From positions 1 through 64,000 of IMG/VR virus record IMGVR_UViG_3300035698_026482: a stretch of 64,000 nucleotides of DNA; one strand, 5' to 3'. The position numbers and the translations under genes were made by a program. The notes below the pieces were generated by a model, which was given only the letters and a program-made list of their open reading frames with translations, had not been told where the DNA came from and did no database searches. Below, piece after piece: positions 4,960 to 55,245 of this stretch. The stretch comes from a virus. Each line of letters begins with the position of its first letter. Within the stretch, counting starts at the first letter, position 1.

Positions 4960-5615
4960 GTGCCGATAAGTATATGTTCGGTTGTTAATGCCCTAGCCTC
5001 AATCCACCCAATGGTAGTGAGAATAGGATGATCTTCTGTGCATTTCAATGTGCGACCATCATCAAAGCACAATTCAATTACATTTTTTAGTCCATTATCA
5101 TGCCATCCAATAATCGTATCACATTCGAACGAGCTTAATTCTGTGTTATAAGATAAAACTTCGTAAGGCTTTCTTGACTCAACCAGATCGCTAATTTTCT
5201 TTTTTTCCCCAGATGCAAGTGTCACAAAAGTATCACCAGTGATACACATATGTCCATACGTGTCACCAAGCACCTTTTCGATTGCCGGGTGAATATACTC
5301 TAGCTTTTCGCCGGCCTCAACTCTTTCCTTATCAGTGACGTAGGCCTTGTCAACGCCTGCGCTTAGCGGTCCTGGACGATAAATCGAAGATAGAGCAGCA
5401 AGATCGACAATCGAGCGAGGCTTAGCTTTTTGCATGAGATTTTGCATGCCTCTCTCTGTCGCCTGAAACACTGCGGCCCATTTACCATCATGAAAGACGT
5501 TTTCATACACACGCTGATCATTAAGATCGCAAGATTCGGCGTCTAGATTTTCATTGAACCACGCCTTGATATCCGTAAACTCAGGCACAATCTTTTTTGT
5601 AATCTTGGGCTTCAT
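4956..5615 (-). CDS. dnaE: DNA polymerase III alpha fragment 3: DnaE extein plus IntN (4956-5246)
   Basis: VFQ...DLAALSSIYRPGPL...LGDTYGHM|CITGDTFVTLASG...LKCTEDHPILT. Confidence 0.9.
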   Translation of the reverse strand: MKPKITKKIVPEFTDIKAWFNENLDAESCDLNDQRVYENVFHDGKWAAVFQATERGMQNLMQKAKPRSIVDLAALSSIYRPGPLSAGVDKAYVTDKERVEAGEKLEYIHPAIEKVLGDTYGHMCITGDTFVTLASGEKKKISDLVESRKPYEVLSYNTELSSFECDTIIGWHDNGLKNVIELCFDDGRTLKCTEDHPILTTIGWIEARALTTEHILIGT

Positions 5616-7968: not shown

Positions 7969-9576
7969 ATGAGTATTATACATCACGATAACTTCATTTG
8001 TCAACATTGCGATTATAGCTCGGCGTCAGCACGAGGATTTGCGCAACATAATAAGAAAAAGCATAATATCGAAAGTGAATCATTGTTTTGCAATGTATAT
8101 GAAACACACGCCCAATTACACAAATGCGCCGGATGCAATGCCCAATCGAAATTTGTCGGTTTTACGCATGGATACGAGCAGATTTGTGGGAAGTGCAAAA
8201 GAAAAAAAGCTTTCGAAAAATTGACGCCGTGGAACAAGGGTTTAACAAAATCAACTAGTGGAAAGGTTAAAAAAGCTGCGGCGTCAATGCGTAAGCATTA
8301 CGATAAAAATAAGCACTGGTCGAAGGGTCTAAAAAAAGAAACATCAAGCATTATTGCATCGCGAAGTCATGCTGTATCGAAATCATTAAAAAAATATTAT
8401 GATGAGAACGAACATTGGTCAACGGGACTAACAAAACATACGCATACAGGGATTGCAAAGAGAAGCATTACAAACGCCGCCGTGCAAAAAGGGAAAAAGT
8501 TTTCCAAAGCGCATAAGCTTAAGCTTTCTAATGCGAAAATACTAAGCGAAAAAATTGTCGACTATCGGTTGCATGAGCATGGATTCAATCGATTAGCAGC
8601 GTATGAACATTCGCAAAAGAAGTTGCTTGTCGAGTGCATCAAATGCGAAACGCAATTTGAAAAAACATACGGCAACATTATAAACAGCGGTGGACGATGC
8701 ACAATATGTGACCCAGCATATCAAAACCAATCGTCGAAATGGCAAACAGAAATCTACGATTTCATTATTTCACAGTTCTCGGGTGATGTTATTTTAAACG
8801 ATCGTACATTATTGGGCGGTTATGAATTGGACATTTTTATCCCTTCGCTTAATTTCGCCATTGAATGTCATGGAATATATTGGCATAGCGAAGCAGCGGG
8901 AAGGTTTGATAAAAACTATCATCAAATGAAGTATCAACTTGCTCGTGAACATGGCGTTGAATTATTTCAAATTTATGAGGACGAATGGACTCAAAAAAGT
9001 GAACTTATTAAGGCGATGATTCTGCATCGACTAGGTCATAGCACGCATGTATATGCAAGAAAGCTTAATTTGCAAATCGATACGCCAAACAAAAAAGACG
9101 TTGATGATTTTATTAACAGCAATCATCTAGATGGCTCAACACGATGTCGTCATAGAATTGTACTCAGTGATGCTAATGATGAAATCTTCGGGGCCTTGAC
9201 GTTACGAAAAATCAGCTGGGGCAAATTTAAGGGTGAATTTGAAATTGCGCGCATGTGTTTCAAGCGCGGAACCAAGGTCATTGGCGGAAGCGCGCGCTTG
9301 ATCGCACACGCCAAACATCTACTTCCTGGGGACAAACTTATAACGTATGCTGATAATCGCCTTGGCGGACGGCATCATTGCTATAAAAGTAATGGCTTCG
9401 TATATTCACATTCGACGACGCCTCGATGGTGGTGGACAAATCTTACTGATCGGATGGATCGATTTCATGTTCGTGCAGATAAGGCACGTGGGCTATCAGA
9501 AAATGAAAACGCCGCATTACACGGCGTTGTCAGGATTTATGGATGTAGCAACGAATGTTACATTTATAATCCTTAG
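7969..9576 (+). CDS. Putative homing endonuclease (same family as 5625-7247), antisense to dnaE
   Basis: CQHC..H finger; PWNKGLTK repeats; DRTLLGGYELDIFIP...FAIECHGIYWHS; YARKL; EIARMCF. ATG 7969 is back-to-back with ATG 7968; ATG 7957 is an alternative start. Confidence 0.75.
   Translation: MSIIHHDNFICQHCDYSSASARGFAQHNKKKHNIESESLFCNVYETHAQLHKCAGCNAQSKFVGFTHGYEQICGKCKRKKAFEKLTPWNKGLTKSTSGKVKKAAASMRKHYDKNKHWSKGLKKETSSIIASRSHAVSKSLKKYYDENEHWSTGLTKHTHTGIAKRSITNAAVQKGKKFSKAHKLKLSNAKILSEKIVDYRLHEHGFNRLAAYEHSQKKLLVECIKCETQFEKTYGNIINSGGRCTICDPAYQNQSSKWQTEIYDFIISQFSGDVILNDRTLLGGYELDIFIPSLNFAIECHGIYWHSEAAGRFDKNYHQMKYQLAREHGVELFQIYEDEWTQKSELIKAMILHRLGHSTHVYARKLNLQIDTPNKKDVDDFINSNHLDGSTRCRHRIVLSDANDEIFGALTLRKISWGKFKGEFEIARMCFKRGTKVIGGSARLIAHAKHLLPGDKLITYADNRLGGRHHCYKSNGFVYSHSTTPRWWWTNLTDRMDRFHVRADKARGLSENENAALHGVVRIYGCSNECYIYNP
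7975..8004 (-). promoter_or_regulatory. Consensus sigma70 promoter for dnaE fragment 2 (probably leaderless mRNA)
   Basis: Minus strand TTGACA-N18-TATAAT, followed by 6 nt and then ATG at 7968. Confidence 0.75.
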
Positions 9577-11894
9577 TTTTTCATATACCCAAGCGTATGT
9601 TCAATCGTGTTTGAATCATCGTATTCAATTACATCGAATGGTACAACGTTGAATGTATGTGATCCCTCAACTGAGATGTCGACAAATTCTGTTTCTGTAT
9701 CTAGTGTGTCGACGGACACAACTCTTGCATTACCCTGCATTGATTTTAAATCAATGCCTGCTGCCAGATCTTTCGCAAAAACAACATTATTATCGATATC
9801 TAAAAAACGATGCTTTTCAACGCAAGCAATGCCTCCAAGACATCCATTAAGCTCAATTGTAATCAGTAGCGGCACATCGGTTTTATTTTCCCTAAGCTGA
9901 ACATGCGTAACGCATCTGGGAGTACCATCGGCGTCAAGCACCTCATCACCCTTACCAATGTCACCGATCGGGCTGTATGACCCGTCAGCCATCACAACCA
10001 TATGGTTACTTGCAATACAATCAATATCGGGATATGACGAACGTGCCAGAGAGATAAACCTAGCGAACAACAAATTGTACTTAATAGGATCTACATGTGT
10101 GATGTATAACACGTAACACAATAGTGATCCTGCCGCGGAATTATGAACTGCTTTTCCTTCAATGTTATAAGTGTGTGAAGGCTCAACACATAAGTCAATA
10201 ACCTTGCCTTGATAAGGCCTAATTGTTCTTTTTATTAGTTTGCTATCATCGTGTTTGGCGACGCCAACAACATCATCTAAATCTGTTAGATTTTGTGCCT
10301 CGACCCATCCTCGATTTGACGTTAAAAATTCATGATCAAGTGTACACGTAATTGTTTTACCATCATCGAATTCAAGATCAATTACATCCTCATTGATATC
10401 ATAAGTAAAAACATCAGTGACTTGTCCGATATTGTCATATGCATCAATGACGTCTTCGCCTATTGTAATTGTATCAAGGCGTTTAGGTCCATCAGACGTA
10501 AGCACATTTGATTCAGGAACAAAACACCCTCTACCGGGGCCCACCAGCATATTTTCGTTGGCAAGCTCCATGATTGACTTCATTGTCAAAAAGTAGAGCG
10601 AGAAGTTCTTTTGCTTAATAACCTCAAGTTCTTCCTCTATGCGAGCAACATATTCCGGCTTATCTGCCAGTCCGCGTTTGGTCAGTCCCTCATACGCTGC
10701 GCTTGTAAGTGCTTCATGTTCGCCTTGACCCTTTGGAACAACATACGATGGAAGCTTCACAGAGACGTTTGGACTCGTGTCACCAATCATATCATGGGCA
10801 ATATCATAAGTGCGCTCGATTGCATCAGCAACCAGCTGATCGTCGTAAAAGCTAAGCGACATCTTAGCATTGCGCCCCCTAAGCATGCGCTTTCCGTCCT
10901 TATACGCACCCCACATCTGCTCTGCATTTTTTGGATATAGCTCGCACTCAAGCTCGTCGATAGACTGGGGCAATGCTCCAGGTTCAAATTTATCTTTGCT
11001 TACCCATCCCAGCTTTTTATACATCTCACGATCCTTCCACAGATGTGGTCCAGGATAATGCGAGTCTGCAGTTGCAATGAGCGGCAATTGCGTTCTTTTG
11101 GCTAACTCAATCAAGTGCATGTTGACGAGGTGTTGCGGGCCTAACTTATTGAACTGTAGCTCAAGAAAGAAGTTCTCGCGACCGACTGCGTGCACAATAC
11201 TATCAGTCGTATTCGCCAGATCACGCTGGATTGCTTCAAATGTCTTTTGATCACCTACGCCAGGAACCATTTGATCCCATGTCAAATGCTGGTGGTGTCG
11301 CATTACGTCGTAACTTAGCGGACCTGCCAAACATGCAGAATTTACCACCAGACCCTCTGAGTGTAACTTTAGCAGCTTATAGTCAATTCTTGGGAATCTG
11401 TAGAACCCGTCGCTGTAGCTTTTTGAGACCAATGCGAAAAGATTTTCTAATCCCTTTTGTGACTTGGCAACAACAACAAGATGATGACGACGTCGAACAG
11501 GATCATACCACTTCGTCTGTTTTGATTCTTCCTCATTTTCGATAACGCTGCCGGCATCGTCGTCTGATACCTCTACGAGTCCTCGCTTGTTTTTTGCTTT
11601 TCGTTCGCGGGAAGCGTCATATTCGATTTTCCACTGCGTCAAGTCAGGATGAACATAAAACTCTACTCCTGGTATGAATTTAAACGCGCGGCCGAGCTTA
11701 TCCAATTCCCATTGATGGGATTGCGCATGTGAATATGAATTCATATGGCCGTGATCAGTTATGGCCATTGCGTTCATGCCATTTTCTAAAGCAAAATCAA
11801 AATGCTCTTTGGGATATCCAAGGCCATCATAGGTGCTAAAACCGGAATGTCCATGAAGTCCGACAAATCGTTTTGGCGGTCTTACAATGGACAC
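9573..11894 (-). CDS. dnaE: DNA polymerase III alpha fragment 1: PHP domain, cis mini-intein (10140-10526), IntN (9573-10019)
   Basis: FVGLHGHSGFSTYDG, AITDHG, ATADSHY; GPGRG|CFVPES...VHN|SAAGSL; YPDID|CIASNH... Confidence 0.95.
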   Translation of the reverse strand: MSIVRPPKRFVGLHGHSGFSTYDGLGYPKEHFDFALENGMNAMAITDHGHMNSYSHAQSHQWELDKLGRAFKFIPGVEFYVHPDLTQWKIEYDASRERKAKNKRGLVEVSDDDAGSVIENEEESKQTKWYDPVRRRHHLVVVAKSQKGLENLFALVSKSYSDGFYRFPRIDYKLLKLHSEGLVVNSACLAGPLSYDVMRHHQHLTWDQMVPGVGDQKTFEAIQRDLANTTDSIVHAVGRENFFLELQFNKLGPQHLVNMHLIELAKRTQLPLIATADSHYPGPHLWKDREMYKKLGWVSKDKFEPGALPQSIDELECELYPKNAEQMWGAYKDGKRMLRGRNAKMSLSFYDDQLVADAIERTYDIAHDMIGDTSPNVSVKLPSYVVPKGQGEHEALTSAAYEGLTKRGLADKPEYVARIEEELEVIKQKNFSLYFLTMKSIMELANENMLVGPGRGCFVPESNVLTSDGPKRLDTITIGEDVIDAYDNIGQVTDVFTYDINEDVIDLEFDDGKTITCTLDHEFLTSNRGWVEAQNLTDLDDVVGVAKHDDSKLIKRTIRPYQGKVIDLCVEPSHTYNIEGKAVHNSAAGSLLCYVLYITHVDPIKYNLLFARFISLARSSYPDIDCIASNHMVVMADGSYSPIGDIGKGDEVLDADGTPRCVTHVQLRENKTDVPLLITIELNGCLGGIACVEKHRFLDIDNNVVFAKDLAAGIDLKSMQGNARVVSVDTLDTETEFVDISVEGSHTFNVVPFDVIEYDDSNTIEHTLGYMKN

Positions 11895-11930
11895 TCTGGC
11901 GCCTCCTTCTTTTTGCTTAATTTGTTCATA

Positions 11931-12227
11931 TTAGTTCAATTTGCCTTGTTGAAATGCATTAACCCACGCGTAAATTGTCGGGGCATGGCAGCCAAATTCT
12001 TTTGCTAGCGTCGTTGCCGATTCACCAGCGAGTTTTCGTGTAGCCGCAACGACTTTCATATCATTCGTAAATTTTCGTTTTTGTTTAGACCTAGGAACAA
12101 GATCTGCGACCCACTTATGAACTACGGTCGGATTAACGTTTAAAATTTCGCCAACCTTATATGTGCTGTGATGCAGCTCATATAATATTCTCGCTGCTTT
12201 TTTGGTTCGGGCAGTATGACGCCTCAT
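11931..12227 (-). CDS. Tandem helix-turn-helix protein (IS3 OrfA-like HTH repeats), probable regulator
   Basis: KVGEILNVNPTVVHKWV and TLAKEFGCHAPTIYAWV. Confidence 0.7.
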   Translation of the reverse strand: MRRHTARTKKAARILYELHHSTYKVGEILNVNPTVVHKWVADLVPRSKQKRKFTNDMKVVAATRKLAGESATTLAKEFGCHAPTIYAWVNAFQQGKLN

Positions 12228-12409
12228 AATGTCTTATTATACATCACCCTTCGTGAGGAGAACACGCTTTTATTGCGAATCCTTTTTTTGTCTCCGTAAA
12301 GATCACGAGTCCAGCGACGCCAAGACCGGGCAAATTCATATGTCCACGCGGAAGAAAACCCGTACAGCCTGTGCTCTTGCAAAAAATTGTCTGCGGGCAG
12401 GATCCTCAT
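12224..12409 (-). CDS. FSSR-motif microprotein (array A)
   Basis: 61 aa from MRILPADNFL; ends VFSSRRVMYNKTL*; ATGA overlaps at both ends. Confidence 0.8.
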   Translation of the reverse strand: MRILPADNFLQEHRLYGFSSAWTYEFARSWRRWTRDLYGDKKRIRNKSVFSSRRVMYNKTL

Positions 12410-12601
12410 CTGCTTATCCTACGTGAGGAGAACACATGGCTTGTACCCTCGTGGGTTGGATCACCGTAATAATCATTCGTCTTCCAGGCCCATACAAGTT
12501 GACGATCGGGGGGGGAGGTAGCCTCGACGGTGGTTTACTGCCCTGCTGCTATCAATATAAAGGATAAGGTCGCCTAGGAACCATTTCATTGCACGTGTCA
12601 T
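12406..12601 (-). pseudogene. FSSR-motif microprotein frameshifted at a C8 run (array A)
   Basis: Removing one G from G8 at 12508-12515 gives MTRAMKWFLGDLIL...HVFSSRRISR*, with an ATGA overlap into 12409. Confidence 0.75.
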
Positions 12602-12762
12602 GCGCTCACCTTTCGTGAAGACCATTGATTGACTTGATGGGCCGGGGTCGAGCCCATTGTTTTCATCGTCGTGCTCATCCAATAACGTTGCGCTTGATTA
12701 CCCATATAGTTTAAGAGATACATGTCATCACATCGCCATGGCAATTTTTCAACAACCCACAT
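12598..12762 (-). CDS. FSSR-motif microprotein, WSSRK variant (array A)
   Basis: 54 aa from MWVVEKLPWRCDDMYLL; ends QWSSRKVSA*. Confidence 0.8.
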   Translation of the reverse strand: MWVVEKLPWRCDDMYLLNYMGNQAQRYWMSTTMKTMGSTPAHQVNQWSSRKVSA

Positions 12763-12968
12763 TAGCTGCTCACCTTGCGTGATGAGAACATCATGCTGGC
12801 GTAGCTGCAGATCCATGAATAGGGTGAACAAAATGACTCACGCGACCAACCAAGATCCTCTGGGGACGAGCTCGGCTCATCATTTTTTGTGCACCAAGTA
12901 TATGCTTGCGGCTTGAAAAAATCGTCACGAAGCAACTGATCGTATCCGTTCAGCCAAGTTGTTTTCAT
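12762..12968 (-). CDS. FSSR-motif microprotein (array A)
   Basis: 68 aa from MKTTWLNGYDQLL; ends MFSSRKVSS*. Confidence 0.8.
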   Translation of the reverse strand: MKTTWLNGYDQLLRDDFFKPQAYTWCTKNDEPSSSPEDLGWSRESFCSPYSWICSYASMMFSSRKVSS

Positions 12969-13129
12969 ACATTTACCTTGCGTGAAGACCATTGATAGGC
13001 CCGATGGGCCGGGGTCGAGCCCATTGTTTTCAGCACGTTGCTCATCCAATAACGTTGTATTTCATTGCCCATATTACGCAAAAGATACATGTCATCAGGT
13101 CGCCTCGGAAATCCCACAACGGCCCACAT
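12965..13129 (-). CDS. FSSR-motif microprotein, WSSRK variant (array A); paralog of 12598-12762
   Basis: 54 aa from MWAVVGFPRRPDDMYLL; ends QWSSRKVNV*. Confidence 0.8.
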   Translation of the reverse strand: MWAVVGFPRRPDDMYLLRNMGNEIQRYWMSNVLKTMGSTPAHRAYQWSSRKVNV

Positions 13130-13416
13130 TAGTTGGCCACCTTCCGCGATGAGAATATTGAAATACAAAAGGCGCCGCCCGGCATGCCTCTATCAACGCA
13201 ATAAGGCATGCCGCCGCCGGCGTGTTTGGATGAGGCTGTTTCATATTTTGATGCCTTGCATGTATATCTTAAATTCGTGATTATGTAAGAACCGCCCATG
13301 CGATTCTCATGATACTGGAAATATGAATCGTCTACTGCAATGCATGCATATAGATCAGGCCAATGAACATACGGCCAATGTTTTATTTGCCTTGGCGCTG
13401 GATTTACGACCTTCAT
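13129..13416 (-). CDS. FSSR-motif microprotein (array A)
   Basis: 95 aa; ends IFSSRKVAN*; TAATG overlap. Confidence 0.8.
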   Translation of the reverse strand: MKVVNPAPRQIKHWPYVHWPDLYACIAVDDSYFQYHENRMGGSYIITNLRYTCKASKYETASSKHAGGGMPYCVDRGMPGGAFCISIFSSRKVAN

Positions 13417-13637
13417 CTATTCACCCTGCGGCTTGAAAATATAAGCGCCTCTATATGCCCATCATGTAGTGGCGCCGTGTATGTGCATTTATCGTTAAAC
13501 TGCCATCCGCATTGCTTTGCAGTCTGTGTTTTATTATCGAAGTCCCATATACACGCTTGCTGACTTGACAGATGAATTGGTATGTCTAGTGAATAGGGCC
13601 ACCCGCGCAAGAGAATATCACCCGATAACAGTTTCAT
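13413..13637 (-). CDS. FSSR-motif microprotein (array A)
   Basis: 74 aa from MKLLSGDILL; ends IFSSRRVNR*. Confidence 0.8.
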   Translation of the reverse strand: MKLLSGDILLRGWPYSLDIPIHLSSQQACIWDFDNKTQTAKQCGWQFNDKCTYTAPLHDGHIEALIFSSRRVNR

Positions 13638-13837
13638 GTGCTCACCTTCCTGGACGAGAAGATAAGATATTTGTGATACTGTAATCTGTACGCTGCTGCT
13701 TTCGTCGAAGCCGCTTTTGCCTGGGTGGGACTCATTTTTCCTACATCAATATAGTATGCGCGGCGACGGCGGCGGCTGTATATCCACTTGTCATATTGCC
13801 ATTTTTCAATTAGCGCATCCTGAATTTTGTATTTCAT
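13634..13837 (-). CDS. FSSR-motif microprotein (array A)
   Basis: 67 aa from MKYKIQDALI; ends IFSSRKVST*. Confidence 0.8.
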   Translation of the reverse strand: MKYKIQDALIEKWQYDKWIYSRRRRRAYYIDVGKMSPTQAKAASTKAAAYRLQYHKYLIFSSRKVST

Positions 13838-14073
13838 ACATTCACCTTTCGTGAGGAGAAAATGATCATACGTCCATATGGATGGTAATTCGTTGCATCT
13901 AACGACCACGGCGGCAAAATATGATACATTTTATCTGTACTTGTTGGCCAGAATTGATGATCTCCCGCGAGCATATTCATACATTCACCTTTCGTGAGGA
14001 GAAAATGATCATACGTCCATATGGATGGTAATTCGTTGCATCTAACGAGCCCGGCGTCAAAATATGATACATT
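13833..14073. repeat. Near-identical direct repeat of about 98 bp, period 143 bp
   Basis: ttcatacattcacctttcgtgaggagaaaatgatcatacgtccatatggatggtaattcgttgcatctaacga occurs at 13833 and 13976. Confidence 0.95.
13834..13980 (-). CDS. FSSR-motif microprotein (array A; below ORF-track cutoff)
   Basis: 48 aa: MNMLAGDHQFWPTSTDKMYHILPPWSLDATNYHPYGRMIIFSSRKVNV*. Confidence 0.8.
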   Translation of the reverse strand: MNMLAGDHQFWPTSTDKMYHILPPWSLDATNYHPYGRMIIFSSRKVNV

Positions 14074-14117
14074 TCAAACATTTTCAATACCATGTGATCG
14101 TCTAGCTTGAGTTTCAT
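13977..14117 (-). CDS. FSSR-motif microprotein (array A; below ORF-track cutoff)
   Basis: 46 aa: MKLKLDDHMVLKMFEMYHILTPGSLDATNYHPYGRMIIFSSRKVNV*. Confidence 0.8.
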   Translation of the reverse strand: MKLKLDDHMVLKMFEMYHILTPGSLDATNYHPYGRMIIFSSRKVNV

Positions 14118-14335
14118 ATTGTCACCTTGCGTGAAGAAAATGCCCAGGCAATAGTTTCCCCTGCGAAGTCGTTATCATGATTAAGATACGTGGTCTCGTA
14201 AGCAACATGTTCCTCGCCGCGCGAAAGCTTATAGCCTATGCGACGACCGTGCTGCCCGGTCTGACCGTGCATGACAACTGCCTCTACGCGGATTGAATTA
14301 AAAACAACAGCTAAGTCATCGTGATATGCAATCAT
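14114..14335 (-). CDS. FSSR-motif microprotein (array A)
   Basis: 73 aa from MIAYHDDLAV; ends AFSSRKVTI*. Confidence 0.8.
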   Translation of the reverse strand: MIAYHDDLAVVFNSIRVEAVVMHGQTGQHGRRIGYKLSRGEEHVAYETTYLNHDNDFAGETIAWAFSSRKVTI

Positions 14336-14550
14336 CGTGCTACACGCCTTGAAGAAAATGCAGTAATATGCTGATCAGTAACACCCCATCTAATCAGATT
14401 CTTAGTTATGACTAAAGGTAACGACGATGTTTTGGCGCCCGATTTAAATTCTGTAGGATGCTGCCCAAAAAATGCGATTTTTGAATCAGCAATATGAAGT
14501 CTTAAGAAGAAATCACCTTCATGCCAGCGAAATTTAATTTGAGGAACCAT
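14332..14550 (-). CDS. FSSR-motif microprotein (array A)
   Basis: 72 aa containing WHEGDFFL; ends AFSSRRVAR*. Confidence 0.8.
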   Translation of the reverse strand: MVPQIKFRWHEGDFFLRLHIADSKIAFFGQHPTEFKSGAKTSSLPLVITKNLIRWGVTDQHITAFSSRRVAR

Positions 14551-14800
14551 TACCTAGCGATCTGCTTGAAAATACAAGCACTTCATCGATGCTCGGACAG
14601 CCGAATGTCGTGAAATCATTTTGCGGGGACCAAGTGCAATAATTGCACCAGCGCCAGCCGCGTGATTCGGGTGTCACGTAACGATCGCCCATATCAAGCC
14701 ATAATGACGCCGCGCCATACCAGCGTGATTCAAGCGCTTCGGGATTATCGTGTATGTTGCCCTGTATGAGCATGTCGTTGAGCATAATTTTCATCTCCAT
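14534..14800 (-). CDS. FSSR-motif microprotein (array A)
   Basis: 88 aa containing MLNDMLI; ends VFSSRSLGNGSSN*. Confidence 0.8.
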   Translation of the reverse strand: MEMKIMLNDMLIQGNIHDNPEALESRWYGAASLWLDMGDRYVTPESRGWRWCNYCTWSPQNDFTTFGCPSIDEVLVFSSRSLGNGSSN

Positions 14801-14801
14801 A

Positions 14802-14996
14802 CTAAGCGCGCACCTTCCTTGAGGAAAATGTAATGTTGTTTTCTGAATACTTTGAGCCTATCCAGAAAATTGTCGCCATGTGATGTGTCGACGATCCAGG
14901 TGGCGCTGCCCAATGCGTTGGATGCTGTATATACGAATCCTTGTGATTAACGAGCACGTAATCTCCTCGAGCTAAATGCGAAATTGAAATCGTCAA
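14802..14996 (-). CDS. FSSR-motif microprotein (array A)
   Basis: Ends TFSSRKVRA*. The start is either TTG 14996 or GTG 14957, the latter preceded by GAGGAG. Confidence 0.75.
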   Translation of the reverse strand: MTISISHLARGDYVLVNHKDSYIQHPTHWAAPPGSSTHHMATIFWIGSKYSENNITFSSRKVRA

Positions 14997-15180
14997 GGCT
15001 TAAGCAACATCTCCATTCGGCAGTCGCACATTGACTCCAGCCATTGCTTACAGGTGTACTTGGCGTCAACCATTGACAAGGTGTTGCTTCCACGTCGGTC
15101 CATTTATTTGGATAATAATGTAGATTATACATTAGAATATTATCTCCCAAGGCAATAAACGAGACATATCGGCGCTTCAT
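14947..15180 (-). CDS. FSSR-motif microprotein (array A)
   Basis: 77 aa containing IALGDNIL; ends AFSSRRLRAR*. Confidence 0.8.
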   Translation of the reverse strand: MKRRYVSFIALGDNILMYNLHYYPNKWTDVEATPCQWLTPSTPVSNGWSQCATAEWRCCLSLDDFNFAFSSRRLRAR

Positions 15181-15402
15181 CGTGCCACCGACCTCGATGA
15201 AAATTGCCAACAAACATATTCGCTAAAATAAAAAAGCTCTTTGTCATCGTATTTGTGTCCGTATACGATTATGCCTCGAGAAGGACGATTCAAGGCGTCA
15301 AGATGATCACCTCGCATACTTGTGGTGTAACATCGTTTCACATCATCAGTCGCTATCGCATGATCAGTCGCCTATCGCATGATCATTTTGATATACAATC
15401 AT
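15177..15402 (-). pseudogene. FSSR-motif microprotein disrupted by a 19-bp tandem duplication (array A)
   Basis: Removing GATCATGCGATAGGCGACT restores MIVYQNDHAIATDDV...CWQFSSRSVAR*, with ATGA overlaps at both ends. Confidence 0.75.
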
Positions 15403-15590
15403 CCTGTGATTTTCCGTGAGCTAAAAATAATAGAATCACCAATAAAAGCATTGGTATAATGCCGCATGGGGGTGTAGTAAATCGCTACGATCTCGCCGGT
15501 ACGATGAAAACACATATCAACGGTATCATCAGCGTTAACGCGCCGCATAGCAACGTTAACATCAATTGCAGCGCGCCATAACATGTTCAT
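15399..15590 (-). CDS. FSSR-motif microprotein (first gene of array A)
   Basis: Ends IFSSRKITG*; the start may be the second ATG at 15584. Confidence 0.8.
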   Translation of the reverse strand: MNMLWRAAIDVNVAMRRVNADDTVDMCFHRTGEIVAIYYTPMRHYTNAFIGDSIIFSSRKITG

Positions 15591-15599
15591 ATTGTATCA
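15591..15599 (-). promoter_or_regulatory. Candidate extended -10 promoter heading array A
   Basis: TG-A-TACAAT followed by 6 nt and then ATG 15584; no clear -35. Confidence 0.45.
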
Positions 15600-15629
15600 T
15601 ATGCTGACACAGATATACACGTTCAGCGA

Positions 15630-16829
15630 TTATTGATTAAGCCAGAGACCTGCGTTTTTTAACGCATTAATCGTTGTGGGTTCTTTTGTGTAAACCGTGT
15701 CTAAGTCAGCAACACCATACCCGGGACACCCCGAATCGCGCGGTTGGTGATCTTCTGTTTCGTCAGCACCGATTTTGGAAACATCTGCGCGCTTATCAGA
15801 ATAGTGTTTCCATACTGCTTTTGCTTGACCTGAGATTATTTCGCGGTCAGGCATCAAGCCATCGCCCTGTAATGTTGCCCATTCCATCGCCACGTCATAA
15901 ATGAATGGTCCCCATCCCTTAACCGCTGACGCCTCAGCGACGACCCACGCGTCACATTCCTTTGACCACCATATTTTGATCTCGGCAATAGAAGTATCAT
16001 CATTACCTAGCACGAATTCTATGCTTGATGGACGTTTATTGGTCGAGTCGGTCCACCATGTAACATAGAAGCCTTGCTCGATATCATTTATGCTGCGTGC
16101 AGCTTCCACTAGCTCTCGTGCGGGAGATTCGAGTGTAAGCTCTTTTTCTTTTTTGGCATGCGCCGCATCGTACAGCTTCTTAATATACCCATTACGCCGA
16201 AGGGCTTTAAAGGCCAGATTCTCAACAGAAAATTCGCCCGCTGAGTCTAGACCTGCTTGTCGCATTTTCTTGACCTTTTGTTTGGCCACATCAAAGCATG
16301 TATCGCTACAGTCGGGATCATCGAGTGCATAGTCAATCATATTCATCAATGACTCTGCTTTATCATTGATTGATTTTTCATCAATCGTGTGTAATTTACG
16401 TTCAGGACGTATAAGCCATTTATCACGTGAGACATCGTACACACCTGTTGAATGGTGTGGTTCGCTTACGTCTTGGGCGTAAAGTTCGACCTCATATCCC
16501 TTGGCGGTTACTTCAAATTGATCATTCCAGATTGTCTTTTTTGCATTCATCAAATTTCGTACAAGCTCAACGTTGTTTGATACTGCTGCGAAATCTAACA
16601 AAATATGAAGATCAATATCGCTATATTCGCTCCAGTTAAAATTCGCCAATGAACCAGTAAAAATAACACCCACGATTGGGATATCAATTTCTAGGAAGTC
16701 GACAAATTCCTGCGCGATATCAAGCAACGTTGCTCGAACTACCGGATCCAAGCGCATGCCTCGCCAAACGTCAGGACTTAGTTCATCTTTAATTTTGAAG
16801 CTGTCTAAATCAACTGCGCGTGACATCAT
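15630..16829 (-). CDS. Nucleotidyltransferase (Pol beta superfamily) fused to a C-terminal GNAT-like domain
   Basis: FTGSLANFNWSEYSDIDLHI (GS..DxD) and VELYAQD; C-terminal KGWGPFIYDVAME...AKAVWKHY. Confidence 0.7.
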   Translation of the reverse strand: MMSRAVDLDSFKIKDELSPDVWRGMRLDPVVRATLLDIAQEFVDFLEIDIPIVGVIFTGSLANFNWSEYSDIDLHILLDFAAVSNNVELVRNLMNAKKTIWNDQFEVTAKGYEVELYAQDVSEPHHSTGVYDVSRDKWLIRPERKLHTIDEKSINDKAESLMNMIDYALDDPDCSDTCFDVAKQKVKKMRQAGLDSAGEFSVENLAFKALRRNGYIKKLYDAAHAKKEKELTLESPARELVEAARSINDIEQGFYVTWWTDSTNKRPSSIEFVLGNDDTSIAEIKIWWSKECDAWVVAEASAVKGWGPFIYDVAMEWATLQGDGLMPDREIISGQAKAVWKHYSDKRADVSKIGADETEDHQPRDSGCPGYGVADLDTVYTKEPTTINALKNAGLWLNQ

Positions 16830-17228: not shown

Positions 17229-17363
17229 CTATACTAGACGACGTGAGCTAAAACAAAAAACTTCCGGCGAATATCTAATATGCACATCAGAAAATAAACC
17301 GCCAGCTTGCCAATAGCTACAGTTACCACGGTTAATCAGATAATCGTACTTAGTAATCCTCAT
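17229..17363 (-). CDS. Solo FSSR-motif microprotein (below ORF-track cutoff)
   Basis: 44 aa: MRITKYDYLINRGNCSYWQAGGLFSDVHIRYSPEVFCFSSRRLV*. Confidence 0.75.
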   Translation of the reverse strand: MRITKYDYLINRGNCSYWQAGGLFSDVHIRYSPEVFCFSSRRLV

Positions 17364-50891: not shown

Positions 50892-51077
50892 TTAAAGCTT
50901 ACGACTAGAAAATATCTGTTGACTTCCAAGTAACATACTTCGTAGTTTTTTATCATACCTGATATGGGGTGCAGCAAAATAGTCCGTGTATATAAGCTGA
51001 CCCTTTAATTTGTCAAGGAAGTAGCGAGAAAAATACATATCGTCTGGGCGAATATAGCTGCTAAATTGAGATGTCAT
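50892..51077 (-). CDS. FSSR-motif microprotein (array B)
   Basis: 61 aa containing IRPDDMYF; ends IFSSRKL*. Confidence 0.8.
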   Translation of the reverse strand: MTSQFSSYIRPDDMYFSRYFLDKLKGQLIYTDYFAAPHIRYDKKLRSMLLGSQQIFSSRKL

Positions 51078-51078
51078 G

Positions 51079-51282
51079 TTATATTTTTCTGCTTGAAAAG
51101 CATGTTTCGCCGCTGTACCATGCATCGCCAAATGTTTCTCGCAAAAATTGACCTGGAAACATAACACGAAAATAGCAAAGGTTAAGCAGTGAACCAAACT
51201 CACCGCGCAAGGAACCGCTATGTTCATTAGAATAAATGTATAAATCGCCCGTAACAACAGGGATTTTGTTATGATTTATCAT
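51079..51282 (-). CDS. FSSR-motif microprotein (array B)
   Basis: 67 aa containing VVTGDLYI; ends CFSSRKI*. Confidence 0.8.
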   Translation of the reverse strand: MINHNKIPVVTGDLYIYSNEHSGSLRGEFGSLLNLCYFRVMFPGQFLRETFGDAWYSGETCFSSRKI

Positions 51283-51541
51283 TTGGCGGACTGGTAAGCA
51301 TTTCAACTAATGCATAAACTGCTTCCTCATTATGTTTAATTAATTCTGTTCTAAGATCGATTTCTGCCCTAATAACATCTCGCGGCGGCTCAGCAGCGAT
51401 TTCATACTGATAAGCTTGTTCGTTCATGCGATGAATAATATGTCTAAGCTTGGCTGTACGAACTAGTTCCCACTCCCACGTTGCGCGACGCCCATGATGA
51501 CTAATATATTTCACCCACGTATATTTTTCTGTTTTTATCAT
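51269..51541 (-). CDS. Hypothetical protein inside array B that lacks the motif
   Basis: 90-aa ORF. Confidence 0.65.
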   Translation of the reverse strand: MIKTEKYTWVKYISHHGRRATWEWELVRTAKLRHIIHRMNEQAYQYEIAAEPPRDVIRAEIDLRTELIKHNEEAVYALVEMLTSPPNDKS

Positions 51542-51544
51542 TTG

Positions 51545-51712
51545 CTAAATCTTTCTTGAGATAAATCTGCGCCATAATGAATAGCCAACATCTGCATAGC
51601 TTAAAATCGTGTTCGGTGGGGCGGTTCTAAATTCAATCTCATGATGCTTCTGTTCATTATAAAACGGCAAGAAAAAGTAGAAATAATGATCTGCAGGCCT
51701 AATTTTCATCAT
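51545..51712 (-). CDS. FSSR-like microprotein, FISRK variant (array B; below ORF-track cutoff)
   Basis: 55 aa: MMKIRPADHYFY...LWRRFISRKI*. Confidence 0.75.
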   Translation of the reverse strand: MMKIRPADHYFYFFLPFYNEQKHHEIEFRTAPPNTILSYADVGYSLWRRFISRKI

Positions 51713-51900
51713 GTGCGCCTTGAACTAAAAATCCATTTGCGCAACATCATTCCGTCAGATGCCAGGTTTTCACCATAACTCGCTCCCTGTGACATAATAT
51801 CGCCGAAATAAGCTTCATCACGCATGTATGAAACATGCATTCCGCTCGTCTGTATCCAATGTATCAAAAAGAAACATGCATCGTTTTTATATGGCCTCAT
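51709..51900 (-). CDS. FSSR-motif microprotein (array B)
   Basis: 63 aa from MRPYKNDACFF; ends IFSSRRT*. Confidence 0.8.
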   Translation of the reverse strand: MRPYKNDACFFLIHWIQTSGMHVSYMRDEAYFGDIMSQGASYGENLASDGMMLRKWIFSSRRT

Positions 51901-52106
51901 ATCGCTAGTTTTCTTGAGCTAAAAACGTACCCAACTGAGAAGAGGTCGTATTTGCAGGCGCCCGTATAGTAGTATGTTCGGTATCTTGCAATTACGTTAT
52001 CAAGTATATCTTGGTAAAAGATAGCGTCATCATAATCCATCCATTCTCTTAGCGACATGTTTCGTTTTGGATTGAGAAGCTGTTTGTATAATTCATTCGC
52101 GCTCAT
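51897..52106 (-). CDS. FSSR-motif microprotein (array B)
   Basis: 69 aa; ends VFSSRKLAI*. Confidence 0.8.
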   Translation of the reverse strand: MSANELYKQLLNPKRNMSLREWMDYDDAIFYQDILDNVIARYRTYYYTGACKYDLFSVGYVFSSRKLAI

Positions 52107-52275
52107 AAATTCGTCTTGATGAAAACACGTCAGATGATATTAGCGTCGACAAATCAGCCCATTGGGTAACATTGCCAGCAGTCCACGTGCGGCGGATTCC
52201 GCCAATATAATCAATTCCCGCTGCAAGCATCACGAAATCGTTATGCTTAATCAATGTGTAATTCATTTGCATCAT
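52093..52275 (-). CDS. FSSR-motif microprotein (array B)
   Basis: 60 aa containing IKHNDFVM; ends VFSSRRIYERE*. Confidence 0.8.
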   Translation of the reverse strand: MMQMNYTLIKHNDFVMLAAGIDYIGGIRRTWTAGNVTQWADLSTLISSDVFSSRRIYERE

Positions 52276-52499
52276 CTATTCACCCTTCGTGATGAGAAAT
52301 AATATGCCACTAATTCATGATATCCCGTACGCAAGACAAAATTAGTACCGTATTTATATTCGTACAGTAGCGGCGCATCACCAAAAAAAGCAATCGCGTC
52401 ATCGTCGGATATCAATTTTTCGACACGACATTTTTCACAGCCACGAGTCATTATTCCTGACATTACATGGATTGAATAGTCATCCTTGTATGCAATCAT
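52272..52499 (-). CDS. FSSR-motif microprotein (array B)
   Basis: 75 aa from MIAYKDDYSI; ends YFSSRRVNR*. Confidence 0.8.
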   Translation of the reverse strand: MIAYKDDYSIHVMSGIMTRGCEKCRVEKLISDDDAIAFFGDAPLLYEYKYGTNFVLRTGYHELVAYYFSSRRVNR

Positions 52500-52702
52500 T
52501 ATTCGGCTTTTGTTATTATTTTTCGTGACGAGAAAACGTCAAGCATGTGCTCATACGTCCGTAGTCCGAACTTGCCTACGTAATCAGCCTGGAAATAATC
52601 GATAACTGTTCCGACAAAGTAATTGTCGGGATCTGTTACGTCAAGCTTTTCATTGCCATGAAAATAGATGTACAAATCATTAAGTTCTACGGGTACCCGC
52701 AT
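52499..52702 (-). CDS. FSSR-motif microprotein (array B)
   Basis: 67 aa from MRVPVELNDLYI; ends VFSSRKIITKAE*. Confidence 0.8.
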   Translation of the reverse strand: MRVPVELNDLYIYFHGNEKLDVTDPDNYFVGTVIDYFQADYVGKFGLRTYEHMLDVFSSRKIITKAE

Positions 52703-52874
52703 TTGATACCCTTCGCGATGAGAAAACGTAGCAGTAATTGTTGTGTGCATAATGTGATGCGGATCTAGCGGATCTCGTGTATGTTATATGGGTGGTATAT
52801 ACGTTGCACACGTCAGCGAACTGTGGAGGGCTATACCGATACACACACGCTTTATCGCCAGTTCTGGAATTCAT
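52680..52874 (-). CDS. FSSR-motif microprotein (array B)
   Basis: 64 aa from MNSRTGDKAC; ends VFSSRRVSNAGTRRT*. Confidence 0.78.
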   Translation of the reverse strand: MNSRTGDKACVYRYSPPQFADVCNVYTTHITYTRSARSASHYAHNNYCYVFSSRRVSNAGTRRT

Positions 52875-53086
52875 GTTGTGCTAATCTTTCGTGACGAGAA
52901 AGTTTCAATGTGAAAACCCGAAGGCGTCCAGGCACTTAATTGTGGATTGCGTAAGGTCATCGAGTCCTTTGTTAACGGATAATATGAATACCTTGTCCTG
53001 CCGGGTCTTGATGGACATCGCCAGTAGACGATTATTCCATACGTCGGGGTAACCCTGAACACGTGATCAAGTGACGTTGACAGCAT
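52871..53086 (-). CDS. FSSR-motif microprotein (array B)
   Basis: 71 aa containing SLDHVF; ends TFSSRKISTT*. Confidence 0.8.
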   Translation of the reverse strand: MLSTSLDHVFRVTPTYGIIVYWRCPSRPGRTRYSYYPLTKDSMTLRNPQLSAWTPSGFHIETFSSRKISTT

Positions 53087-53088
53087 TG

Positions 53089-53277
53089 TTATCTATTCGC
53101 TTTCCGTGATGAGAAAATATATTCGTCCGTGTACGAACGTTGAACGCTGCGGGACGTAGCATATGCGATATAAGCACCACCGTTCAGCGTGGTAGCAATT
53201 GAACGATCAAGTACACGGAAATTTGAATCTTCGCGTGACCAGGCTATAAAATAGTGATCGTCGAAAACTATAGGCAT
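53089..53277 (-). CDS. FSSR-motif microprotein (array B)
   Basis: 62 aa from MPIVFDDHYF; ends IFSSRKANR*. Confidence 0.8.
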   Translation of the reverse strand: MPIVFDDHYFIAWSREDSNFRVLDRSIATTLNGGAYIAYATSRSVQRSYTDEYIFSSRKANR

Positions 53278-54869
53278 GCATTCCCTTGTAATTCGAATCG
53301 TGCATTAGGACAGCCATAAATTTTAACAAGACCTCGAGCTGCGGCAACAGCCGCTTGCGACAATCCTTGTGTCTTATCTGCAGTAACGTATAATCGCGGA
53401 TATCTGTTTACAAAATCTGTCCACCAAAATCTAGAGCTTGTTAGACCGGTGTAGGTAAATCCAATATTACTATACCCGACACCTAAGCCTATTCGACGAT
53501 CTGCATAAGTCATAATAGATTTTGTATTATCGATATCGTTTCTTGCGTGCTTTAAAAGCTTTGACAATCCGCCGATAACGTATAGATTAAGTGACGTAGC
53601 ATATCGCGCTATTTCCAAGAAATTCTTTTTGTGCGTCTTTGAAATCGGTGTTCGTAACGAAAGCGCAGCAACAATTTCATTGTCATGAATTAAGGCATAT
53701 GCAGCCTTCGCGTTTCCAGTATCACCATCTAAGTGCGTCGAATTAAAAAATGTCTGGCGTTGGGCGCGCGTAAGTTTCTCGATTCGACATTTTCGTGCAT
53801 AAATTTTTGTGCAATCAACCTTTAGACGATTTCTGATCATCGATTTAACAATCTGTTGTTTGTCACGCCACTCGTCTTCAAAGATATGAAACAGGGGTAA
53901 GTCAATTGCTTCACACAACTGCGTTTTATCCCAATGCGCATCATTATTCGTTAATATTTCTTCAGAATGCCAATATAACCCATTAAATTCAATTGCTAAC
54001 GTATTCGGCACAAGTATATCGATTTCTTTAGGTGCTATTGTATTTCTATCGTTTAATATAGCGTCAGGCCTGAGGGCTTTTACGAAGTCATATACTTCCC
54101 TCTCTGATTTCCACTTTGGCATGCATGAAGGGCAATACTGGCGCCGAAGCATGTATTTGTATGTCCGCTCAAATGTTGTATCACATGTCGTGCATTTAAA
54201 TGTCGCTCGTGAATTCACGCCTGCGTATTCGTCAATTGACGAATATAATTCGAATCCTTTCATTTCAGCACATCGTTCAGCAACGACGTTTTTATCAAGC
54301 ATTTGCGACGCGCTTATTTTCGCTGCGCCAATGATCAGTCCGGGTGTATCGTCTTTTGTCTTATTACGATTCCACGGGACAGTTGTTCCATCAGCAAAAT
54401 TAGCCAGTTTTGTTTCTGACATTTGCTTTATTGATGCGCTCGTATCTTTTGTTAGTCCATTTTGCCATGGAACTAGTCTGCCTTCTGCGTATCCGCGCTG
54501 CAATGTCTCTGCAGTTTTCTTTGCGATGGCCCTAACTCTGCTATCTTGCTTTGTTAAACCCTTATTCCACGAGCCATGTATTTTACGATGCTTTGCCGAT
54601 GCTAGCGTCGCTGCTTTTCGAGCCTTGTCGCTGAATCCATTATGACCAACAACAAACTTTGAAAATGCACGATTATCATCTGTCCAGCGTTGTGCCAATG
54701 ATACAGTTTCGCCGCAGCCGCATGAACATGTGGGAACCTCACCATTATGCAACATATCTGCGAAAATTTTCGACCTAGATACATCGCGATGCGCTTTCGT
54801 GATATGACAGGCCATACCGCGCCGCGTTTTTACGATTGCGCAAATAGGGCACTTGTAATCGACTGGCAT
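53268..54869 (-). CDS. Putative homing endonuclease (same family as 5625-7247), inserted in array B
   Basis: CPIC..H, CSCGCG, WNKGLTK repeats, DRNTIAPKEIDI...AIEFNGLYWHS, YARKC, EIARY. Confidence 0.75.
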   Translation of the reverse strand: MPVDYKCPICAIVKTRRGMACHITKAHRDVSRSKIFADMLHNGEVPTCSCGCGETVSLAQRWTDDNRAFSKFVVGHNGFSDKARKAATLASAKHRKIHGSWNKGLTKQDSRVRAIAKKTAETLQRGYAEGRLVPWQNGLTKDTSASIKQMSETKLANFADGTTVPWNRNKTKDDTPGLIIGAAKISASQMLDKNVVAERCAEMKGFELYSSIDEYAGVNSRATFKCTTCDTTFERTYKYMLRRQYCPSCMPKWKSEREVYDFVKALRPDAILNDRNTIAPKEIDILVPNTLAIEFNGLYWHSEEILTNNDAHWDKTQLCEAIDLPLFHIFEDEWRDKQQIVKSMIRNRLKVDCTKIYARKCRIEKLTRAQRQTFFNSTHLDGDTGNAKAAYALIHDNEIVAALSLRTPISKTHKKNFLEIARYATSLNLYVIGGLSKLLKHARNDIDNTKSIMTYADRRIGLGVGYSNIGFTYTGLTSSRFWWTDFVNRYPRLYVTADKTQGLSQAAVAAARGLVKIYGCPNARFELQGNACL

Positions 54870-54894
54870 CTTACATATTATACATATGTTAGAT
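54868..54894 (-). promoter_or_regulatory. Hairpin overlapping the endonuclease start codon, containing TATAAT
   Basis: ATCTAACATAT-GTATA-ATATGTAAGAT|G, an 11-bp stem with 1 mismatch. Confidence 0.6.
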
Positions 54895-54917
54895 CAATAT
54901 GTTTGGTCCAGCCTGCA

Positions 54918-55151
54918 CTATTGTTTAGCAATGCCGAGACGACGGGATGAGAAAACATCGTATTCCCAATATCCCAGTATGCCTCCCGATGTTGAATATT
55001 CATGCGCGGTTGGCCACGTATCAATGAAATGGTCAAGTGGGAGGGCCCAGTGGTTATAATTCGTTAATATTAACATCCTGGATTGTGCCCAATCAGATAA
55101 AGTCACGTCGTCGAGGGCACCAATATGCGTTGCATTCTGCTTTAGTATCAT
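54918..55151 (-). CDS. FSSR-motif microprotein (first gene of array B)
   Basis: 77 aa from MILKQNA; ends VFSSRRLGIAKQ*; starts just downstream of the tube-gene terminator. Confidence 0.75.
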   Translation of the reverse strand: MILKQNATHIGALDDVTLSDWAQSRMLILTNYNHWALPLDHFIDTWPTAHEYSTSGGILGYWEYDVFSSRRLGIAKQ

Positions 55152-55163
55152 AAGCGTTGGCGG

Positions 55164-55205
55164 GACAAAAGAAATCCCCTTACACTGTATTACAGCGAAG
55201 GGGAT
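55164..55205 (-). terminator. Rho-independent terminator after the tail tube gene
   Basis: ATCCCCTT-CGCTGT-AAT-ACAGTG-T-AAGGGGAT followed by TTCTTTTG. Confidence 0.75.
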
Positions 55206-55225
55206 AATGTTCAGTCTTGATACTG

Positions 55226-55245
55226 CAGCCACTTATAAGTGGCTG
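55226..55245. repeat. Perfect 20-bp palindrome
   Basis: CAGCCACTTATAAGTGGCTG, just past the tube stop codon. Confidence 0.9.

Follow-up and report, generated by a model that had tools for sequence, protein, structure and literature searches.

Seventeen consecutive small genes on the minus strand of a virus genome end in nearly the same short peptide, and in many of them the codons of this peptide stand just before the next start codon. This raises the question of whether the repeated stretch is kept as a peptide, as a ribosome-binding signal or as a point at which genes are exchanged. The genes, here called array A (units A01 to A17, 15584/15590 to 12224), are part of the window, i.e., the first 64 kb (positions 1 to 64,000) of the linear IMG/VR virus record IMGVR_UViG_3300035698_026482 (182,840 bp; G+C 43.7%; completeness ~53% according to CheckV). 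The minus strand holds nearly all genes of the record, and a megablast of 12 kb against phage records matched no close relative among deposited phages. Our preferred reading, to which we assign a probability of roughly 0.8, is that array A is an operon-like 17-gene run of one microprotein family in which two constraints, on the peptide and on the RNA, act on the same 15-20 nt, and that the run is translated with Shine-Dalgarno (SD)-assisted coupling.

Anatomy of array A

The original prediction described 17 head-to-tail motif genes joined mostly by ATGA or TAATG overlaps, and both statements hold. Units of array A end in [F/W]-S-S-R-[K/R/S]-[V/I/L], followed in 13 of the 17 by exactly two residues and the stop codon, which amounts to four residues after Arg. 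The units are as follows.

A01, 15399 to 15584, minus strand: 61 aa; ATG at 15584, other possible starts at 15590 and, family-like (MRRVNADD), at 15548; ends FSSRKITG.
A01/A02 spacer, 15342 to 15398, minus strand: degenerate sequence, the first break of the chain.
A02, 15177 to 15341, minus strand: GTG start at 15341, or ATG at 15317; ends FSSRSVAR.
A03, 14947 to 15180, minus strand: 77 aa; ATGA-overlapped start; SD GGTCGGTGG, -10.7 kcal/mol.
A04, 14802 to 14957, minus strand: 51 aa; GTG start at 14957; 11-nt overlap; SD GAGGAG from the S-R-R codons of A03.
A05, 14534 to 14800, minus strand: 88 aa; long tail FSSRSLGNGSSN.
A06, 14332 to 14550, minus strand: 72 aa; 17-nt overlap with A05; weak SD (-5.0 kcal/mol).
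A07, 14114 to 14335, minus strand: 73 aa; ATGA junction; N-terminus MIAYHDD resembles B06 of a second array, array B.
A08, 13977 to 14117, minus strand: 46 aa; ATGA junction; SD AAGGTGA.
A09, 13834 to 13980, minus strand: 48 aa; partial paralogue of A08.
A10, 13634 to 13837, minus strand: 67 aa.
A11, 13413 to 13637, minus strand: 74 aa; the strongest SD of the array precedes its start (GGAAGGTGA, -12.6 kcal/mol).
A12, 13129 to 13416, minus strand: 95 aa; sole member with a clear ortholog in the relative L006 (L006 3642-3929, 45% identity).
A13, 12965 to 13129, minus strand: 54 aa; TAATG junction; paralogue of A15 (67% identity).
A14, 12762 to 12968, minus strand: 68 aa.
A15, 12598 to 12762, minus strand: 54 aa; TAATG junction.
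A16, 12406 to 12601, minus strand: broken as assembled; N-terminal part 12601-12473, motif-bearing part with stop at 12406 in another frame.
A17, 12224 to 12409, minus strand: 61 aa; long tail FSSRRVMYNKTL.

Sixteen junctions were counted, from A02 onward and including that between A17 and the following helix-turn-helix (HTH) gene; 12 of these are ATGA and two are TAATG (13129, 12762). Junctions of other types are A03/A04 (GTG at 14957 with GAGGAG five nt upstream), A04/A05 (TAG-t-ATG) and A05/A06 with its long overlap. The genes are co-directional and their stop and start codons overlap or lie a few nt apart, as in overlapping gene pairs. The SD hexamer is spaced from the start codon by 5 nt at ATGA joints, by 8 nt at TAATG joints and by 10 nt at the A04/A05 joint.

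Members of array A (46-95 aa) start with M-x(4-6)-D, carry a central W/Y and end in Phi-F-S-S-R-[K/R]-Phi, with variable sequence between. In the family alignment, an Asp ~6-8 residues after Met is nearly invariant and a central Trp/Tyr is frequent. Given the constant start, the constant end and the variable middle, the units form one protein family that is undescribed. Searches of ten members against Pfam-A and PHROGs gave no match at or near any cut-off, a family profile run against 1.84 billion representatives matched only proteins of L006, and the ESM Atlas held no usable match for the family. An AlphaFold2 (AF2) model built from the family alignment is all-beta at low confidence (predicted local distance difference test, pLDDT, 62.7) and gave no significant structural match. 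A likeness to Sm/LSm-like barrels (Foldseek against the PDB) reached only E ~1 and is not used as evidence here. The true start of A02 may be the ATG at 15317 (MRGDHL...), which matches the N-terminal pattern of the family.

The family extends beyond array A. With the tail defined as [FW]SSR followed by a stop within 12 codons, a chance test over the 182.8-kb record yields ~31 tail-type open reading frames (ORFs), all on the minus strand: 17 in array A, a solo member at 17229-17363, array B at 50892-55232 and two distant solo members. Minus-strand tail sites always lie in the coding frame of an ORF of 44-121 codons; the plus strand has only three tail sites, all in short ORFs of 23-33 codons. 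Array B belongs to the same family: its proteins start alike and also end in FSSR[K/R]Phi, and most of its joints are ATGA or TAATG. Upstream of array A, at a distance of ~1.6 kb, stands the solo member at 17229-17363 (44 aa, ending FSSRRLV); genes for 123 and 399 aa lie in between.

Peptide tail and Shine-Dalgarno signal in the same codons

The codons for R-K/R-V at the end of the units had been proposed to double as the SD of the next gene. In array A, these codons (AAGGTG, AGGGTG, GAGGAG) provide a strong SD 5-10 nt before the next start at 11 of the 16 junctions. SD strength was scored as the binding of the 20 nt before the start to a generic 16S 3′ tail, which may differ from that of the host. 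On this scale, binding is -8.3 kcal/mol or stronger at 11/16 junctions versus 12% of 108 well-delimited genome starts, which average -4.6 kcal/mol (random 20-mers, -3.7 kcal/mol). Val after the motif is spelled GTG in 11 of 13 cases versus 14% genome-wide (p = 2e-8), and Lys of the motif is spelled AAG in nine of ten versus 46% (p = 0.005). When the upstream codons were changed synonymously using the genome's own codon usage, the mean binding weakened from the observed -8.1 kcal/mol to -3.3 kcal/mol, and not one of 2000 recodings was as strong (z = -8.6). Because synonymous recoding abolishes the strong binding, the SD signal of array A stems from codon choice and not from the peptide. All nine AAGGTG hexamers of the genome that have a start 4-10 nt downstream belong to array A.

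The only relative found, L006, came to light through a conserved neighbour, the nucleotidyltransferase (NTase)-like gene directly upstream of array A. The best homologue of this gene (57% identity) lies on Logan contig L006 (4,575 nt, 57% G+C), where at least 16 small genes with 13 ATGA and 3 GTGA joints come directly after it. Fifteen of the small genes end in F-S-S-R-R-[V/I]-x-R, and the Arg-Arg of this tail is spelled AGG AGG, a canonical SD. AGG is used for 17 of 24 motif Arg codons versus 17% in gene bodies (p = 6e-9), and recoding weakens the binding from -9.5 to -4.8 kcal/mol (z = -7.2). Two lineages attain SD strength by different residues and codons at an equal distance from the overlapping start. 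Codon bias, recoding tests and this independent AGGAGG solution together confirm the proposed double role of the tail codons. Further searches were negative: the NTase gene as query against viral contigs found no related locus, two DNA junction patterns run against viral contigs gave 0 matches and 3 chance matches, a metagenome pattern scan gave at least 120 single chance matches and no arrays, and the contexts of six other NTase homologues are non-syntenic and contain no motif ORFs.

The SD-like codons might also reflect recent common descent or gene conversion at the junctions (concerted evolution) instead of selection for ribosome binding. The A08 and A09 junctions are identical and AAGGTG serves as a ribosome-binding site in array A only, which speaks for such homogenization. 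However, the Phe, Ser and Arg codons directly beside AAG GTG are scrambled at their synonymous sites and AAG GTG itself is conserved, the recoding test still gives z = -8.3 after the duplicated A08/A09 junction is dropped, and L006 reaches SD strength via other residues and codons. Hence, we consider concerted evolution a very improbable source of the signal.

Selection on the peptide can be separated from that on the RNA. Both Ser positions of the tail switch between TCN and AGY and the Arg switches between CGN and AGR, in the window phage as well as in L006. As these Ser and Arg codon families interchange, the F-S-S-R core is selected as a peptide and not as a nucleotide repeat, and we rejected a motif acting purely at the nucleotide level. 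Array B and the solo copies keep the tail F-S-S-R-[K/R]-[I/L/V] without the SD signal (-3.0 kcal/mol versus -3.1 kcal/mol recoded). In these copies, Lys is AAA more often than AAG, mostly Ile or Leu stands in place of Val, and 2-10 residues follow the Arg. The same family and tail thus occur with an SD in array A and the syntenic L006 array and without one in array B. This is a natural control, and the peptide and RNA constraints on the same codons are therefore separable and quantifiable. The contrast predicts a measurable difference between arrays A and B in their dependence on reinitiation. The tail-to-stop distance varies in array B, which makes it unlikely that the tail acts on termination as a nascent peptide.

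Alternatively, the FSSRKV codons could be an RNA or DNA element, e.g., an anti-SD mimic (UUCUCC) that hides the SD until the upstream ribosome arrives, and the peptide a by-product. The pyrimidine-rich F-S-S codons do pair with the purine-rich SD in several minimum-energy folds (e.g., A04/A05 and A10/A11, with 8-10 bp), and the junction folds have a mean z of -0.65. AGC/AGT nevertheless encodes Ser at 4 of 34 sites in array A, at 9 of 28 in the remaining copies and at most second-Ser positions of L006; these codons destroy the pairing and keep the peptide. Moreover, array B retains the peptide in the absence of an SD, and recoding F-S-S together with the upstream codons leaves the SD no more exposed than it really is (0.39 versus 0.42 unpaired, P = 0.19). 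An SD-occluding hairpin selected via codon choice is unsupported by these data, and we regard an element of this kind as very improbable.

With respect to function, a precursor array for ribosomally synthesized and post-translationally modified peptides (RiPPs) was considered. A conserved end and a variable body are present, and no RiPP-type enzyme is adjacent; the neighbours in question are the NTase-like gene and, in L006 only, a small 2-oxoglutarate (2OG)-Fe(II) oxygenase-like gene, both with Pfam matches below cut-off. The R-K-V end may resemble the basic-hydrophobic C-terminal recognition tags of ClpX. Our best guess is a set of early, host-directed binders that share one partner, to which the tail docks or by which it is recognised.

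Array head and probable coupled translation

A candidate extended -10 promoter had been predicted at the head of the array, and it is supported by similar sites on the minus strand and by an equivalent in L006.

Candidate promoter, 15591 to 15619, minus strand: -35-like TGTATA (15619-15614), 17-nt spacer, TG-extended -10 TGATACAAT (15599-15591).

The array head reads TGTATA, 17 nt, TG-A-TACAAT, ATGAACATG, with ATGs at 15590 and 15584. The geometry TACAAT-N6-ATG fits a leaderless-type start and, given the 6 nt that separate it from the -10, the ATG at 15584 is a candidate leaderless start. In the whole record, TAnAAT-N5-7-ATG opens an ORF of at least 40 codons at 14 minus-strand sites (examples at 5615, 7968, 54869, 75109, 136922, 166904, 172274, 174082, and 176868) and at no plus-strand site. 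In several of them the -10 is preceded by TGn and the -35 is similar to TGTAAA. Judged by this pattern, the sites look like a class of leaderless-mRNA promoters. At the same position, L006 has TTGAAC-N18-TAGAAT-N7-ATG. A generic sigma-70 scan did not flag the array-head promoter, and between 11500 and 17500 neither promoter-like sites (14 versus 14.4 expected) nor terminator-like sites (2 versus 5.2 expected) exceed chance. The first unit of each array has a short N-terminal extension before a family-type internal Met, which fits the recruitment of a leaderless start.

The simplest reading is one transcript with a leaderless first cistron and SD-assisted coupling downstream. One host-type TG-extended -10 promoter would probably transcribe the array, and the later cistrons would be translated by termination-reinitiation and/or local initiation, each later ATG overlapping the preceding stop (ATGA/TAATG) and its SD lying inside the last five codons of the preceding gene. 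At the peptide level, the FSSR[K/R]Phi tail itself is selected: it persists where no SD exists, and its Ser and Arg codons interchange between families. At the RNA level, in array A and the L006 array, the choices that remain free (Lys as AAG, Val as GTG, Val and not Ile or Leu, Arg as AGG, exactly four residues after Arg) place AAGGUGA or AGGAGG at a constant spacing before the AUG. The anatomy, the two constraints and the fact that they can be separated are seen directly in the sequences; that there is one transcript, that translation is coupled and what the proteins do is what we infer.

Several observations weigh against coupled translation of the whole run. The chain is interrupted between A01 and A02 by 58-82 nt of degenerate sequence. 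A16 is frameshifted as assembled, its halves meeting at a run of eight C (12508-12515). In the tail of A17 (…RRVMYNKTL; 12227-12245), a TATAAT (ATGTATAAT) stands 8 nt upstream of the HTH start codon and might act as a second promoter of the leaderless type, serving HTH and dnaE. Furthermore, good SDs are absent from 5 of the 16 junctions, SD use elsewhere in the genome is weak (mean -4.6 kcal/mol), with AAGGTG confined to array A as a ribosome-binding site, and the scoring of this uncultured phage used a generic 16S tail.

Two of these breaks have features of their own. Within 15342-15398, a mini-ORF of 12 codons overlaps the stop of A01 (ATGA) and an 18/19-nt sequence is repeated in tandem at 15384-15348; the stretch may be the remnant of a lost unit. 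Removal of one C from A16 restores an intact 64-aa family member, and the C run could be an assembly error, the mark of a pseudogene or a site of slippage-dependent expression. At its other end, the chain had been predicted to run into the HTH and dnaE genes. The first of these steps stands, since A17 and the HTH gene overlap by ATGA, although with no good SD. The second does not: a 36-nt spacer separates the HTH gene from dnaE, which has its own AAGGAGG-N7-GTG.

Coupling at such joints is known from other systems. ATGA/TGATG pairs with an intragenic SD were coupled in 13 of 14 tested cases, with an SD contribution that varies by gene, and Haloarchaea and Cyanobacteria make little use of SDs at leading or leaderless genes and use them at overlaps (Huber et al., 2019, PMC6728339). 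Translational coupling of overlapping pairs is treated in further sources (PMC10666635; review, PMC12548453). Like such pairs, array A has co-directional genes with stop/start overlaps of 4 nt or 1 nt and an SD within the 3′-terminal part of the preceding gene. It differs in that 17 consecutive paralogous cistrons use one joint type, that the SD is written into a conserved peptide tail and that array B, which belongs to the same family, has no SD layer. By analogy, array A resembles the published pattern, in which overlaps rely on SDs to a greater extent than leading genes do. The mechanism that we propose is not new but a very regular form of ordinary coupling through an SD inside the upstream gene. 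Because such coupling is textbook knowledge, the joint by itself is unsurprising; particular here are the undescribed family with its conserved FSSR[K/R]Phi tail and the contrast between an SD-coded and an SD-free array. Gene callers and annotators that ignore overlapping ORFs of 45-95 codons miss such genes.

Likely collinear inheritance, possible exchange of units, and neighbouring genes

The original prediction further took the units to be self-contained cassettes that can be shuffled. This is possible but is not borne out by the comparison with L006, where the order looks collinear and a single clear ortholog stands at the same rank. A12 and its L006 counterpart R13 (45% identity, Z = 39) are the only clear orthologs, and each is the 12th family gene after the NTase; a profile of the pair finds L006 only. 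Gene lengths correlate by rank between array A and L006 (rho 0.66, p = 0.007, permutation p = 0.027; at offset 0 only), also without the anchor pair (rho 0.59). Random pairings are outscored by the four rank pairs on either side of the A12/R13 anchor (P ~0.01; these pairs were picked post hoc) but not by the rank diagonal as a whole (P = 0.15). Based on the rank of the ortholog and the correlation of lengths by rank, the evidence leans towards a collinear, vertically inherited array whose genes diverge in place.

The opposing view is that the ~27-nt motif-plus-junction is above all a recombination site, at which unequal or illegitimate crossover duplicates, deletes, inserts and reorders whole genes in frame, with the expression of a moved gene guaranteed. 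Much the same has been proposed for promoter-early stem-loop (PeSL) elements, which delimit cassettes in the hyperplastic regions of T4-type phages (Arbiol et al., 2010, PMC2839356; Comeau et al., 2014, PMC4122927). Three observations in the arrays are compatible with exchange at the joints. A 99-nt block common to A08 and A09 (97% identical) stops precisely at the ATGA, the duplicates A13 and A15 are bounded by the motif on both sides, and L006 contains one whole-gene indel, R07, at a junction. On the other hand, the ortholog stands at the same rank in L006, lengths correlate by rank and the pairs flanking the anchor exceed random pairings. Both duplications are local and tandem, arrays A and B have no DNA similarity, and the junctions carry neither promoter nor terminator. 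We therefore consider it rather doubtful that recombination is the main role of the joint.

The likeness to PeSL cassettes also has its limits. Both systems place short repeats between small, fast-evolving phage genes, and in both the repeat has been proposed to supply expression signals and to mediate modular exchange. PeSLs, however, are non-coding promoter and terminator motifs documented by comparison of close relatives, whereas the repeat of array A is coding, carries an SD and a stop/start and contains no promoter or stem-loop terminator. If crossovers of a cassette system nonetheless took place at the ~27-nt joint, whole microprotein genes, with an occasional foreign one such as R07, would be duplicated, lost or inserted there in frame. 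Expression would be immediate, as an inserted gene takes its SD and start from the unit before it. On this view, array A would be a stock of host-directed binding proteins that can grow and that brings its own expression signals, with the FSSR[K/R]Phi tail as a docking or recognition signal, a combination that we consider unlikely.

R07 itself (L006:2388-2717) encodes a 109-aa 2OG-Fe(II) oxygenase-like protein (PF13640, 25.3 bits versus a cut-off of 27). It is a non-family gene within the L006 array, flanked by ATGA joints, and its end (GGGTGG...AGATGA) is family-like; no counterpart was found in the window record. R07 could modify the conserved Asp or the Arg/Lys of the family, or it could be a mere insertion.

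The genes on either side of array A are the following.

NTase-like gene, 15630 to 16829, minus strand: directly upstream of array A.
HTH gene, 11931 to 12227, minus strand: 98 aa; PF13384 HTH_23 (38.6 bits, above cut-off); start overlaps the A17 stop.
First DnaE fragment (PHP, pol III alpha, inteins), 9573 to 11894, minus strand: GTG start, own AAGGAGG seven nt upstream.

The NTase-like gene has thousands of homologues and a Pfam match only below cut-off. It encodes 399 aa here versus ~237 aa in most homologues (L006:378-1091 compared), and from residue ~240 on it contains an additional C-terminal domain for which Pfam gave no match. The DnaE fragment is ~30% identical to DnaE of Bacillus phage G and of Streptomyces phages. 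Between the HTH gene and dnaE (11895-11933), a 15-codon mini-ORF begins one nt past the HTH stop (TAAtATG) and continues over both the AAGGAGG and the GTG with which the DnaE fragment starts.

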